A DNA stretch of 64,000 nt, from sequence record OQ626344; one strand, given 5' to 3'. Within the stretch, counting starts at the first letter, position 1. Every line of letters starts with the position of its first letter. The notes beneath the pieces are model-generated. The model was not told the DNA's origin and searched no databases. It saw only the letters and a program-made list of their open reading frames with translations. A program made the translations under genes and the position numbers. This document shows, in pieces, positions 28,215-33,694 of this stretch. Origin of the DNA: Escherichia phage S127 BCL3.

Positions 28215-30293
28215 TTAAAAAGGTGTTTCGTCGTCTTCAAAACCCGGAACGTGGTTAGAGGACGGATCATCATACTGAAGGTCTTCCTGTGTGTCAACAG
28301 GGTTAACAGTAGGAGTTACAACCTTATCAGCCACAACCTTGCCAACAGGTGTTTCTACAACTGCATGCTCCTGATCCTCAAACATAGCCTGAGGTCTCCA
28401 AACAACCTCCCCACCTTCCCCGTCTGTAAACATCTGCATTTCTTTGTCCCAGTACCAGTTGCTGGCATCATGGAACTTGCCTGTGTGGGGATCCATAACT
28501 AGAGTGTCCGCAATACCTAAGGTTTTTGCTGGGCGGTTTTTAAGACCTACCAGTCGGACACGTCCACGGGAACGATCCACCATCTCCTCTGCCTCTACCC
28601 CGACAACCACCCAGCTAAGTTGCTCCAATCCGGCACTACCACGAAGGTTCTCTTTTCGTACAGGGTACCAGAAAGGTAACGGATTTCCATCCTTATCCTT
28701 CGGAGGTACAATCTCTGTGCGCTTCAGGTGAGCAATCACCAAGATAAACACATTAAACTGCTTACAGAACGCGGCTAGTTGAGTCATAGCCATGTCAAGC
28801 TCTTTACGCTCATCCTTAACATTAAGCCCTGAAATCACCATAGACAAGTGATCCAGCACAATGTAACGGCAGTGATACAGGCACACCATTTGTTTAAGCT
28901 TAGTGATCAGCTCATCTACAGGGATGGAGCCGAAATGCTTGAACACTTTGATTTTTCCGGCCTTGGCCCAAGATTGATGAATCTCAGCGTGCTCCTGATC
29001 GGTCAGGAACTGACTGGGGTCTTCAACAAACTCTTTAACATCAAACCCCAGCTGGTTAGCGTACAGAGAGTTGATTGCTTCCTCAGGATCCTCTTCAAGG
29101 TGAATCAGGCACAGGCGATCATCCTCTTCATAATCATCAGCTTTAGGGCATGTTGGATCCATCAAGTATCTTGCAATGCAATGTTCCAGCTTCTTGGCTA
29201 CAGTTGTTTTACCACCGCCAGACGGGCCTGTCAGCATCATCAAGGTGCCTTTGTGGAGTCCTTTCAGCATCTTCTGCAGTTTAGGGAACTCTGCACTAAT
29301 ATCCACGCCATTGGAAGTCTTCTTACGAAGAGATTCAATGGAGAAGTCTTCTAAATCAGATACAGCATCAGGCACATATTTGACTGGGTGACGGAACATG
29401 TTGACAATATCTTCCAGCTTTTTAGCCTTCAGCATGTCACGAATATCTTTTACACCATCAGGGTCGTTTACCTCACCTGGGTATTCCACGTGGTAAACGT
29501 TGTCAGCCATCAAAAATGCTGCGATATTATGCGTAGCTTCAACACCTTTGATAACGTGTTTTTGCTTCTCTACCTCGTTGGCTGCATCGTTGTCCATTGC
29601 AAGGACTACTGTTCCGTAGCTACGGATAAATTTCTCATTGTTCGCAAAAGTGTCTACGGCGTTTGCACACCCGCAGTTAATTCCGACAAAAGGCAGGCAT
29701 GGTTTTCCTGCCAGATCACCGCCGTTGATAACTGCATCAATCCCGTCCTGGACTTCTTTAGCCCACTGCTTCACCTTCGCCGGGGCTTTAGCATTGGTGA
29801 GAATTCCTTTTACTTGCACCTGATATGCAGCCTGCCACGCTGCAATAACATCTCCTTCCCCCTCACAAACGTTAATCTGCTTGCGGTTGTTGGAGGATGC
29901 ACACAGCTTTTGACCAAACATCTGGGAGTTGGCCTTTACTATGCCGACAACCGAGAAATGGCCCCTTTGCTCTTTAGGGATTGTCCAGTCACGCTTTTTA
30001 AAGCCAGATAGATTACCGTAGCGGTCATAATACGGAAAGTAGGTGGCAGTAACAGTTACGCCATCCTCTTGGGATAACGATGATCGTACACCAAAATATT
30101 GTGCAGCCATCAGTCCAATATTTTGTTGTGGAACAGGGACAATTTTAGTATTTTCTAAAACAGTCTCTACAGTTTCAACTTCTTTTTCATCACGATAGTC
30201 TCGTTTCACACTTCCCCCACTTTTATACTTAGTTGCTTTCGGGTTTGGCTCACCGAAACGGTTGTATGCAGATGCCATGAATTTACTGCCCAT
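28215..30293 (-). CDS. bifunctional DNA primase/helicase (TOPRIM + DnaB-like)
   Basis: TOPRIM-like VVLAMDNDAANE; Walker A MLTGPSGGGKTT; 692 aa. Confidence 0.85.
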   Translation of the reverse strand: MGSKFMASAYNRFGEPNPKATKYKSGGSVKRDYRDEKEVETVETVLENTKIVPVPQQNIGLMAAQYFGVRSSLSQEDGVTVTATYFPYYDRYGNLSGFKKRDWTIPKEQRGHFSVVGIVKANSQMFGQKLCASSNNRKQINVCEGEGDVIAAWQAAYQVQVKGILTNAKAPAKVKQWAKEVQDGIDAVINGGDLAGKPCLPFVGINCGCANAVDTFANNEKFIRSYGTVVLAMDNDAANEVEKQKHVIKGVEATHNIAAFLMADNVYHVEYPGEVNDPDGVKDIRDMLKAKKLEDIVNMFRHPVKYVPDAVSDLEDFSIESLRKKTSNGVDISAEFPKLQKMLKGLHKGTLMMLTGPSGGGKTTVAKKLEHCIARYLMDPTCPKADDYEEDDRLCLIHLEEDPEEAINSLYANQLGFDVKEFVEDPSQFLTDQEHAEIHQSWAKAGKIKVFKHFGSIPVDELITKLKQMVCLYHCRYIVLDHLSMVISGLNVKDERKELDMAMTQLAAFCKQFNVFILVIAHLKRTEIVPPKDKDGNPLPFWYPVRKENLRGSAGLEQLSWVVVGVEAEEMVDRSRGRVRLVGLKNRPAKTLGIADTLVMDPHTGKFHDASNWYWDKEMQMFTDGEGGEVVWRPQAMFEDQEHAVVETPVGKVVADKVVTPTVNPVDTQEDLQYDDPSSNHVPGFEDDETPF

Positions 30294-31047
30294 CAGTTCT
30301 TCTCCTTACTGCAGGCTCGTTTGCTAAGAATACAGCTCTTGCCCAGCCACGTGGTGTAAGGCTTCGAATCATCTTCGTCCTTGCACTCTTTCCACCTAGC
30401 TTAGCGTGTTGCATGGAATAACCACTAACCACATCAACTATTTGCGGGACAGGTTTTGTGGCGGGGATTATAAATCCATTTCCTATCCAACCGCAAGTTA
30501 TTTTTGGGTAGGCATCACGTGGAGCTATAAATTCAGGAAACCATGGGTTTACATCATCCTCTGGTAAATACCCACCATAATCCGAAGGATGAAAACGGTA
30601 ATCAGGTTTTCGCCACAGTGTTGACATAACTCCTACAGGGTTCTCTACATGCCACGGGCAATCGTAAATCTCTCCCAACTCTTCTGCAACCCGAGCATCT
30701 TTCACAGCATTAATTTGGATCAGAGGATCCTTAGCCAGCTTTTTCTTAAAGTGTGCAGCTCCGGATACTGCTAAATGCGTGCACGGAGGAAATGCAAGAA
30801 TAAAGTCTGGAGCTGGATACATGCAAAAAGTTTCTTGAGGGAACCATGGATCAATCCAATAATCCACATAGTGAATGTTAGGATGATCGGTTATCACCTC
30901 TGCATAACTGCCGTGGTCAGCACCTTCTGCATTAAAGCACAGGCACAGGTACCCAGCTTTTGCCCAGTCAATAACTGCACCACCAGACCCGTCAAATAGA
31001 CTCCACACAACACCTTTGTGGTAGTGTTCTTTGTAGATAAATTTCAA
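30283..31047 (-). CDS. DNA (cytosine-5)-methyltransferase-like protein
   Basis: Motif I LFDGSGG, motif IV FPPCTHLAV, ENV-like HVENPVG; start placed at TTG (Leu11 of track ORF) with AGGAGA SD 7 nt upstream; track GTG start lies inside terminator hairpin. Confidence 0.6.
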   Translation of the reverse strand: MKFIYKEHYHKGVVWSLFDGSGGAVIDWAKAGYLCLCFNAEGADHGSYAEVITDHPNIHYVDYWIDPWFPQETFCMYPAPDFILAFPPCTHLAVSGAAHFKKKLAKDPLIQINAVKDARVAEELGEIYDCPWHVENPVGVMSTLWRKPDYRFHPSDYGGYLPEDDVNPWFPEFIAPRDAYPKITCGWIGNGFIIPATKPVPQIVDVVSGYSMQHAKLGGKSARTKMIRSLTPRGWARAVFLANEPAVRRRTDGQ

Positions 31048-31062
31048 TTTGCTGTCTCCTAA

Positions 31063-32294: not shown

Positions 32295-32350
32295 TCGGTG
32301 TTCTCCTTATCTTGTGTGAAGAGTAGACCTCTCCTTCGATATTTTAAATA

Positions 32351-33694
32351 TTACTCTAAATCTTCTTCTGAGTCAAGCTTATCTTTCACAACTAAGTTCT
32401 GGGCAAGTTTGTAATAACGAAAGCCCCCACCACCTTGCCAGTTTACAGATTTAGAAATACCACTTTGATCTTCACCATCGATCACTTTTTGCAAGCGTGG
32501 AATAATATGGGTATGACAATGATCTCCTAGCTCAACCGAGATCCAACGTCTTTTCATCTTGTGAGCTGCAGCAGCAGTAGTTCCCGAACCGCCGAATGAG
32601 TCCAATACTAAATCTCCTTCTCGCGTACACATTTCTAAAATCCGCTTCAAAAGCGCTTCAGGTTTTTTTCCATTTTTGAAACTAACGCCCCCTTCATTTG
32701 CTATTCCATTCCAACTAATGTCAGTCCAAACATCAGTTATTAGTTCAGCAGGCTGCATCTCACCGTCAATTTCCAAAAGCCTATTGGAATAAAAGACCAT
32801 TTGCCTACCATTTGCGATATAAAAGCCTTCGACATCCTCATTTGGATGTACATAAACCTTATCCCTATCTTTCTTTGACTTCTCGATAGTTTCTTTTCTC
32901 TTTATTTTGGCACCACCGCCAATTGCAACGGATTGAAATACACGTTCTGCATTATCAATTGCAAATTGTGCTAATTCATCATCAAATGTATCAGGCAGTT
33001 TTTTCTTGGCTTCTTTTGTATCTTTATAGCCATTGGCCTTTGCAAACGCCTCGGCAATACCGCACCACGTCCAACTTTTATAATGGTCATCTGGGTTTAA
33101 TAGATATTTGTTATATCCCGTATCATACTCTTTAGGTATATAGATTTTGTTAAGTGGTTTCTTGGTACGATCTTTTGCATATACAAGCAAAAAGTTTGCT
33201 GTGGAGAAAACTGTAGTTCCTGTTGCCTTAAAGCCTGAAGGGCAATTTGTAGTCATCGATATGGTATTTAACTGATTTGCACGACCAAAAATCTCGTCCA
33301 TCAAGACTTTTAAATAAGCCATTTCGCAGTCATCTAAGTGAACGAATATCACTCCATCATCGCTTAGCAGATTACGAATTATTTCTAATCTGTCCCGCAT
33401 TAAGCCCAGCCAAATGGAGTGCTCCAGGCTATCATCGTAGTGCTCAAAATCCCTTCCGGTATTGAATGGTGGGTCTATGTAAACACACTTCACTTTGCCT
33501 GCATACTCTTGCTCTAGTGCCTTCAATGCCAGTAAGTTATCGCCAAAAATCAGTTTATTATCAAAAATATCGTTTTCGGTCACCTTTTTACTGGCGTGAT
33601 AAGTCTTGCTCGAATCTTCTAACAAAATGTGAGGCTCTAGCTTTTTGCGCTCGTTCTTACCTATCCAGGTAAGTTCTAATTTGGTTTTACTCAT
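32351..33694 (-). CDS. DNA methyltransferase, N6-adenine/N4-cytosine class (DPPF motif)
   Basis: Motif IV VYIDPPFNTG before motif I VLDSFGGSGTTAAAA (beta-class order). Confidence 0.8.
   Translation of the reverse strand: MSKTKLELTWIGKNERKKLEPHILLEDSSKTYHASKKVTENDIFDNKLIFGDNLLALKALEQEYAGKVKCVYIDPPFNTGRDFEHYDDSLEHSIWLGLMRDRLEIIRNLLSDDGVIFVHLDDCEMAYLKVLMDEIFGRANQLNTISMTTNCPSGFKATGTTVFSTANFLLVYAKDRTKKPLNKIYIPKEYDTGYNKYLLNPDDHYKSWTWCGIAEAFAKANGYKDTKEAKKKLPDTFDDELAQFAIDNAERVFQSVAIGGGAKIKRKETIEKSKKDRDKVYVHPNEDVEGFYIANGRQMVFYSNRLLEIDGEMQPAELITDVWTDISWNGIANEGGVSFKNGKKPEALLKRILEMCTREGDLVLDSFGGSGTTAAAAHKMKRRWISVELGDHCHTHIIPRLQKVIDGEDQSGISKSVNWQGGGGFRYYKLAQNLVVKDKLDSEEDLE

Follow-up and report, generated by a model that had tools for sequence, protein, structure and literature searches.

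A stretch of 64,000 nucleotides (nt) from Escherichia phage S127 BCL3 (sequence record OQ626344), hereafter the window, carries two DNA methyltransferase genes on its minus strand: a small cytosine-C5-type gene at 30283..31047 and a large beta-class gene at 32351..33694. These are probably two independently acquired orphan methyltransferases that are produced together with the replication proteins and act on phage DNA as it is made. A preliminary description of the window, prepared from its sequence, had proposed two unrelated methyltransferases on either side of three uncharacterised genes. All five open reading frames (ORFs) were found where it had placed them, on the minus strand, and the two enzymes are indeed unrelated, one having a C5-cytosine fold and the other being of the beta class. 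Their description as orphans also stands: none of the neighbouring genes matched a restriction enzyme in Pfam, PHROGs, NCBIfam or PADLOC, and no ResIII or REase gene was found in the neighbourhood of either methyltransferase within the window.

The window comes from a Vequintavirus, i.e., an rV5/FV3-like E. coli myophage. The 4.2 kb around the two genes (30000-34200) are 98% identical to phages B9-1 and vB_EcoM-ECP26 and 93-95% identical to FV3, rV5, and a dozen phages of the BASEL collection, all of the genus Vequintavirus. The published genomes (Bas50/Bas51, FV3, rV5) have the same genes in the same order, and nothing substantive differs. In GenBank, the two genes are labelled 'Dcm-like C5 cytosine methyltransferase' and 'putative N6 adenine methyltransferase' in the BASEL phages, including DrSchubert (Bas50) and WalterGehring (Bas51; bas51_0074 is the orthologue of the small enzyme and bas51_0070 that of the large one), while RefSeq lists them in FV3 (ORF211/215) as 'DNA methyltransferase' (small) and 'methyltransferase' (large). 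An adenine and a cytosine methylase, the latter detected by HHpred, were also reported from the related Certrevirus CB7 (PMC7344957). Since both genes are annotated as methyltransferases in near-identical phages, their methyltransferase identity is already known from public records.

The large protein (447 amino acids [aa]), below called Mod-like, has a DPPF motif (residues 74-77) upstream of FGGSGTT (approximately 367-373) with the recognition domain between them, which is the beta-class order, and it matches PF01555 over residues 68-394 (E = 1.4e-43), as expected for the beta-class amino-methyltransferase initially proposed. The PADLOC profile MTase_III (PDLC03636) matches it with E = 1.3e-202, over profile positions 2-445 of 575 only. 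Its best matches in the Protein Data Bank (PDB) are type III Mods, namely those of H. pylori (6k0w, 2e-29), EcoP15I (4zcf, 1e-23), and Mbo45V (5e-20). Homologues number in the thousands in bacteria; the best are mostly 560-600 aa long and 58-77% identical over the whole phage protein, and full-length homologues of 570-600 aa adjoin ResIII genes in diverse bacteria of many phyla. The closest bacterial relative is a 567-aa E. coli Mod with 95% protein identity (419/443 residues). In a megablast search with positions 32200-33900 as the query, 32365..33707 (minus strand) was 94.2-94.4% identical to the mod gene in 25 of 5,426 complete E. coli genomes, the match beginning 13 nt ahead of the start codon and ending near codon 441-444.

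The phage protein stops approximately 125 residues short of the E. coli Mod, and profile positions 446-575 are absent. With the type III Mods (EcoP15I 4zcf, H. pylori 6k0w, E. coli WP_024226319) it shares the beta-class order, the PF01555 core, the N-terminal region, and the recognition insert, and it differs from them in having no C-terminal domain and no res gene. By these sequence features, the 447-aa protein is classified as a type III Mod lacking its C-terminal domain, with the N6-adenine class assigned from DPPF. The gene has no res partner and is encoded by a lytic phage, so it is taken as an orphan methylase and not as a restriction-modification (R-M) system. Orthologues in published Vequintavirus genomes have 93-99% protein identity, and two C-terminal variants occur, the 447-aa FV3 type seen in the window and a 441-aa rV5 type. 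The ratio of nonsynonymous to synonymous substitution rates (dN/dS) of the Mod-like gene is 0.07-0.10, among phages and between phage and E. coli alike, and that of the small gene is 0.04 against the Bas51 and FV3 orthologues, and both methyltransferase genes are under strong purifying selection.

Orphan methyltransferases that counter host restriction are familiar from other phages, e.g., T2/T4 Dam, P1 Dmt, and the multispecific C5 enzymes of the Bacillus phages SPbeta/phi3T. As in those cases, the enzymes described here are phage-encoded, have no partner nuclease, are expressed in replication, and are presumed to serve self-protection. The present case differs in that a host source can be named (a type III Mod gene, 94% nt identity) and that the copy has lost the domain following the catalytic core.

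Among phages, the Mod-like gene is limited to Vequintavirus (at least 93% identity), the next relatives being in genuine Campylobacter phages (at most 41%). It was found in about 87 records, compared with about 115 for the 160-aa ORF and the small methyltransferase that follow it. Bas59 (EduardKellenberger) has no Mod-like gene and a clean junction instead, with the order 113-aa ORF, a single TTGACT...TAAGAT element, a hairpin (GGGGAGGCACTCCTCCCC), a Shine-Dalgarno (SD) sequence, and then directly the 101-aa ORF. In the window, the gene lies between two copies of this leader, both on the minus strand. The upstream copy (33691..33781) contains TTGACT-17-TAAGAT at 33778-33750, a hairpin at 33738-33721, and AGGAG at 33710-33706; the downstream, diverged copy (32288..32383) contains a TTGACT promoter-like element at 32376-32348, a hairpin, and an SD, and precedes the 101-aa ORF. 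The direct repeats D1 and D2 of the leader copies are spaced by 1402-1403 nt. The downstream copy overlaps the 3' end of the Mod-like ORF and supplies its last eight codons (LDSEEDLE, then stop), and its putative promoter would drive the 101-aa ORF. The Mod-like gene is thus best described as a probable accessory cassette inserted between two promoter-hairpin leader copies, the promoter-like sites in the leaders being consensus matches only. A sigma70-like promoter match, a G+C-rich hairpin, and a strong SD stand ahead of the gene starts at 31045-31150, 32288-32383, and 33691-33781. T4-type phages reportedly contain promoter-early-stem-loop (PeSL) cassettes, which Arbiol, Comeau and Krisch (2010) are said to have proposed as a means of shuffling genes. 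The likeness, which serves as a lead only, is that a sigma70-like promoter and stem-loop flank, on either side, an accessory gene found in some close relatives but not in others; the differences are that PeSL cassettes belong to another phage group and that two or three leader copies are compared here.

For the small gene, the mechanically called ORF spans 30283-31077 from a GTG, which falls within a G+C-rich hairpin (31094-31069) followed by a T-run. AGGAG at 31060-31056 precedes the TTG at 31047 by 8 nt, and public records annotate this very 765-nt coding sequence. The TTG start with its strong SD and the 254-aa product, as originally described, are therefore the better call than GTG 31077. 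The leader of the gene (31056..31143, minus strand) has a promoter-like TTGACA-17-TACAAT at 31143-31115 ahead of the hairpin and T-run, and the stop codon overlaps the start of the primase/helicase gene (30293) by 11 nt. The motifs follow the order of C5-methyltransferases (FDGSGG, PPC, ENP), again as the preliminary description had it. In an alignment of 36 relatives, motif I is LFDGSGG at residues 17-23, with G20, S21, and G22 nearly invariant; motif IV is PPC (87-89) within FPPCT (85-90), with P87, P88, and C89 invariant; and motif VI is an invariant ENP at 135-137, in which Pro replaces the Val of ENV. W145-R146 are also invariant in the family alignment, a C-terminal helix TPRGxAxAV is present, and the approximately 70 residues between the ENP region and this helix constitute the recognition region.

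Sequence and profile searches with the small protein gave insignificant, motif-level matches only, after which fold comparison was used. The window's protein had no match in a PF00145 scan even at E ≤ 10; of 36 close relatives, 21 did match, the best with E = 1.3e-6. Against the PDB, the protein (by phmmer) and the family profile found M.HaeIII only, and insignificantly (E about 1; profile 0.9). An AlphaFold2 model built on the family alignment had a mean predicted local distance difference test score (pLDDT) of 90 and a predicted template modelling score (pTM) of 0.90. Foldseek agreed on the C5-methyltransferase fold, and the best structural matches were DNMT3A/B, which are DNA enzymes with small recognition domains. 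Compared with the cytosine-C5 enzymes (PF00145: the DNMT3A/B catalytic domain, M.HhaI, M.HaeIII, and 3g7u of prophage CP-933R), the small enzyme is 12-18% identical, has 254 aa and a recognition region of about 70 aa only, and shows no recognisable motif X or QxRxR. Three negative results count against the assignment: the protein itself had no match in Pfam, NCBIfam, or PADLOC; hhalign of the family profile with E. coli Dcm was insignificant; and neither the QxRxR of motif VIII nor the GN[AS]V of motif X occurs as a string in the protein or the family consensus. By its motifs and modelled fold, the small protein is nevertheless interpreted as a minimal cytosine-C5 methyltransferase.

The family of the small enzyme contains more than 4,000 clustered proteins of 219-262 aa and was found in 1,480 of 50,697 phage records, which include apparent T1-like Drexlerviridae, Dhillonvirus, Klebsiella phages of approximately 49 kb, Krischvirus, and Vequintavirinae. 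It is also found in the nin region of lambdoid prophages, adjoining a Dam-family gene. The window's protein differs from that of Bas51 at 8 of 254 codons (approximately 97% protein identity). Henunavirus and Seunavirus have a 39-47% identical homologue at the same site, just upstream of the primase/helicase gene, and the order rIIA-rIIB-helicase-...-methylase-primase-polymerase is kept in the three genera. The gene of the small enzyme belongs to the replication module and is conserved throughout Vequintavirinae.

In the window, the order of transcription is from rIIA (36680-38662) through rIIB (35464-36705) and a Pif1/Dda-like helicase gene (34094-35464) to a 113-aa ORF, which lies between the helicase gene and the large methyltransferase gene. 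The primase/helicase (28215-30293) and DNA polymerase (25379-28156) genes follow the small methyltransferase gene. All of these genes are on the minus strand, which carries every gene from about 25 to 43 kb of the window.

The two enzymes would act as follows. The Mod-like protein appears to keep the N-terminal dimerisation region, the beta-class core, and the target-recognition insert, and would thus correspond to a type III Mod that works alone. The Mod2 dimer of EcoP15I acts as a methyltransferase by itself, and contact with Res is made by the C-terminal domain (CTD) of Mod (PMC4490356). Because the recognition region is approximately 95% identical to that of the host enzyme, the phage enzyme is predicted to write the same mark as the host Mod, and this mark would protect progeny DNA from the E. 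coli type III system as well as from isospecific systems. The missing tail of about 125 aa would sit where the EcoP15I Mod domain contacts Res. It is by position that this tail is proposed as a Res-contact domain, as it has no sequence similarity to the EcoP15I CTD; nor did the tail of the E. coli Mod give a significant match in the PDB. The small enzyme would use the catalytic Cys in PPC and a very short target-recognition region, as in DNMT3, and its target in phage DNA is most likely a short site that contains cytosine. In the close relative Bas51, the DNA of the virion carries heavy methylation (PMC12548924). Protection from host restriction, the role suggested initially for both enzymes, is favoured for the large one, a truncated near-copy of an E. 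coli type III Mod; the gene is most likely kept to disguise phage DNA from the matching E. coli restriction system. For the small enzyme, protection is what we infer.

Restriction data speak against a general effect of this kind. Vequintavirinae were described as 'exceptionally susceptible' to the six R-M systems tested in the BASEL study (PMC8594841), and their sensitivity to EcoRI, EcoRV, EcoP1I, and EcoCFT_II is high. In the raw efficiency of plating data, the Mod-carrying phages Bas50 and Bas51 were strongly restricted by EcoRI and EcoRV, and each was abolished by one of the two type III systems tested: Bas50 formed no plaques on EcoCFT_II in most experiments, and Bas51 formed none on EcoP1. 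As Mod-carrying phages are strongly restricted, neither enzyme gives broad protection, and any protection must be narrow and limited by specificity. The presence of Mod was also considered as the cause of the difference in EcoCFT_II sensitivity between Bas51 and Bas59 and was rejected, as the Mod-carrying Bas50 is fully restricted.

Methylation data are available for Bas51. In a retron study from 2025, nanopore sequencing of native Bas51 DNA gave N6-methyladenine (6mA) calls at 1,405 GATC, 509 GTAC, and 576 other positions (PMC12548924). The Bas51 genome contains 703 GATC and 258 GTAC sites (516 GTAC adenines, of which 509-511 were called 6mA), and thus essentially every GATC and GTAC adenine was called modified. 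The GATC enzyme is bas51_0176 (177 aa, NPPY, at 108 kb), which is located outside the part of the genome covered by the window and so takes the GATC mark away from the two genes described here. The retron-triggering N6 adenine methyltransferase of Bas51 was considered as the Mod-like bas51_0070, which was rejected since bas51_0176 alone has the residues that were mutated (D69, D79, and T83). The GTAC signal is independent of the GATC methylase. To our knowledge, E. coli K-12 has no GTAC methylase, and the GTAC writer should therefore be encoded by the phage. Four methyltransferase-like genes were counted in Bas51: bas51_0070, bas51_0074, bas51_0176, and bas51_0200, the last one (272 aa, NPPF, no Pfam or PDB match) being outside the window. 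Candidates for the GTAC writer are bas51_0200, the Mod-like enzyme, and the small C5 enzyme, in the last case through 5-methylcytosine (5mC) in GTA5mC miscalled as 6mA. The literature search found no paper reporting the target sites of the Mod-like or the small enzyme. As a speculation, the 'other' 6mA class (349 calls in the GATC-enzyme mutant) fits the size of one asymmetric 5-bp type III motif.

That one of the window's two enzymes writes the Bas51 GTAC mark, either as GTm6AC by the Mod-like enzyme or as miscalled GTA5mC by the small one, is possible, though on the unlikely side. The nearly complete calling of GTAC adenines independently of the GATC enzyme and the apparent lack of a GTAC methylase in E. 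coli K-12 favour it, as does the deficit of GTAC, which is under-represented in the window more than any other 4-mer. M.PabI/M.HpyAXII-type GTAC adenine methylases occur in Campylobacterales (PMC10273834), and it is in Campylobacter phages that the Mod-like gene has its nearest phage relatives. On the other hand, bas51_0200 is a further candidate outside the window, and for the miscall variant, 6mA calls at near 100% favour true m6A over miscalled 5mC. The type III Mods known so far act on asymmetric sites, methylating a single strand, which also speaks against GTAC as the Mod-like target.

A doubtful further reading is that, beyond protective methylation, the phage Mod heterodimerises with the resident type III Mod, so that Res is not recruited and restriction is switched off, and that, separately, the small C5-fold enzyme is the GTAC writer of Bas51. 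Heterodimerisation is possible because the phage protein shares 95% identity with the host Mod and retains the dimer interfaces of the N-terminal region and the catalytic core. EcoP15I Res binds through the CTD of ModA (PMC4490356); in such subunit poisoning, Mod complexes without the CTD would fail to recruit Res from the onset of gene expression.

Regarding the origin of the Mod-like gene, the matching E. coli locus was inspected. The E. coli pair consists of WP_024226319 (mod) and WP_024226320 (res), carried for example by strain SMN152SH1, and the 910-aa protein encoded directly after mod matches REase_III with E = 8.8e-191. Ahead of mod there are an SNF2 (DrmD-like) helicase gene and a small helix-turn-helix (HTH) gene (named mads1 by PGAP), and AbiD/AbiU-like genes are inserted between the SNF2 helicase gene and mod. 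The SNF2 ... mod-res frame recurs around an Acinetobacter homologue, where the cargo is an AAA_15/21 ATPase and DUF4276. This suggests that the HTH-SNF2-[variable cargo]-mod-res frame is a defence-gene insertion hotspot inside a type III-like operon. Assignment of the E. coli locus to MADS or ARMADA was rejected on gene content (SNF2-Abi-mod-res, with only the HTH gene named mads1), MADS being an eight-gene mad1-8 operon with a type I-like methylase and a specificity subunit (bioRxiv 10.1101/2023.03.30.534895).

Capture of the gene by the phage from the host is the favoured direction, because full-length mod-res pairs are widespread in bacteria and the phage form is truncated. The opposite flow, in which the E. 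coli mod would have taken its first ~440 codons and leader from a Vequintavirus, is considered improbable. Phage leaders, including the one now found before the 101-aa ORF with its ATGATG start, are similar to that of E. coli mod (ACACAAGATAAGAGCACAGAAATGATG), and this is a point against host-to-phage capture. Synonymous divergence is also larger between phages (dS 0.29) than between phage and E. coli (0.19-0.21), and the GC content of the Mod-like gene is 0.41, far below the E. coli genome average of approximately 0.51. Nevertheless, full-length homologues with Res genes and 58-77% identity occur in many bacterial phyla, whereas among phages the gene is limited to one genus with next relatives at most 41% identical, and the phage form is the truncated, derived one.

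It is rather improbable that the small protein has the C5 fold but does not write 5mC into DNA, i.e., that it transfers another group (e.g., carboxymethyl), acts on RNA like DNMT2, or is a non-catalytic, DNA-binding replication factor. In the syntenic orthologues of Henunavirus and Seunavirus, YDYTS replaces FDGSGG and EC replaces PC. These altered S-adenosylmethionine (SAM)-loop and Pro-Cys motifs in two genera cast some doubt on which activity is conserved at this position, which may tolerate the loss of canonical motifs; the lack of a Pfam match for the window's protein and of motif X points in the same direction. Yet neither PPC nor ENP varies among the 36 aligned relatives, the glycine motif hardly does, dN/dS is 0.04, the best structural matches (DNMT3A/B) are DNA enzymes, and no CmoA-like carboxy-SAM synthase or other modification gene was found among the nine ORFs scanned at 30283-38662.

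Phage-internal roles of the methyltransferases, such as timing of transcription, replication, or packaging, strand discrimination, or shielding from the phage's own nucleases or homing endonucleases, are given little credence: both genes are in the replication module (the small one overlapping the primase gene), the small gene is kept subfamily-wide regardless of host, Vequintavirinae have no broad R-M resistance, and several homing endonucleases are present in these genomes, but the Mod-like gene is dispensable in nature (missing from Bas59), its near-identity to a host R-M methylase would be hard to explain, and no regulatory motif evidence was found, the epigenetic regulation initially offered as an alternative role having gained no evidence either.

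The three genes between the methyltransferases, reported as uncharacterised in the preliminary description, are indeed conserved 'hypothetical proteins', real genes present in about 115 Vequintavirus records. In transcription order (minus strand), they encode 101 aa (31989..32294; phrog_4240), 131 aa (31594..31989; phrog_11995), and 160 aa (31099..31581; phrog_12900). The 160-aa ORF was found in Vequintavirus records only (at least 96% identity), and the 131-aa ORF is also essentially Vequintavirus-specific. The 101-aa ORF is conserved across Vequintavirinae genera, and its relatives in Henunavirus, Seunavirus, and Certrevirus-type phages, which have no Mod-like gene, occupy the corresponding place and are 31-36% identical; a homologue search with it returned close relatives only. 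The C-terminal module of approximately 55 aa in the 131-aa ORF (residues ~75-130; window 31594-31760) is widespread: about 90 proteins of 57-2,189 aa that are unrelated apart from it (50%-identity library) contain the module, in some cases as several repeats, and ten sampled members had no Pfam family. None of the three ORFs had a match in Pfam, NCBIfam, or PADLOC, and their weak PHROG links to small 'DNA methyltransferase' and 'DNA ligase' families do not amount to independent evidence. A single-sequence AlphaFold2 model of the 160-aa ORF was unusable (pLDDT 38). There was no sign of a cryptic nuclease among the three ORFs in Pfam, NCBIfam, and PADLOC, a weak test that is least telling for the 160-aa ORF. 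Bas59 has kept all three in spite of having no Mod-like gene; since they are kept there, and the 101-aa ORF also in genera without Mod, the intervening genes show no functional tie to either methyltransferase.

In sequence composition, GTAC occurs at 127 sites in the window compared with 173 ± 11 in shuffled sequences; CTAG, CCGG, and ACGT are also rare. The palindromes TGGCCA, CGATCG, GGCGCC, and CTCGAG are absent, with 9-20 expected (both strands). The scarcity of these 4-mers and palindromes looks like classical restriction-site avoidance. CpG is depleted in the window, with an observed/expected ratio of 0.71 (TpG/CpA raised to 1.16), most strongly at codon positions 2-3 (0.47) and 3-1 (0.66). 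In short pieces, the CpG ratio was 0.87 for Henunavirus, 0.77 for Seunavirus, and 1.1-1.3 for E. coli, a lambdoid prophage, and Krischvirus. CpG depletion as a footprint of CpG methylation by the small enzyme was weakened as an explanation by a 12.7-kb Krischvirus segment which has a 56%-identical homologue and a CpG ratio of 1.1.

The polymerase ORF of the window is uninterrupted (925 aa); that of Bas51 is annotated as two joined pieces, and Bas51 has homing-endonuclease genes both ahead of and within its DNA polymerase gene. At least 16 unannotated GenBank records of 'Campylobacter phage' (host C. jejuni; e.g., MG065644.1, MG065690.1, MG065659.1) are 93-94% identical to the region and contain all five genes. 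They look mislabelled, or like E. coli phages co-isolated with Campylobacter phages.

With both genes publicly annotated as methyltransferases, the finding is an ordinary one apart from four additions: the small enzyme has been confirmed structurally, the large one has been recognised as a trimmed near-copy of an E. coli type III Mod in an accessory cassette, the published GATC activity has been reassigned to another gene, and attention is drawn to the GTAC modification of Bas51. The large enzyme would be a clear natural case in which a phage has taken over a host R-M methylase and trimmed it. Phages similar to rV5 are often put forward for therapy and biocontrol directed at E. coli O157 and other strains, and their host range depends partly on the restriction systems that they evade. 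About 0.5% of complete E. coli genomes carry the matching type III system, and on such hosts, phages with and without the Mod-like gene should plate differently.

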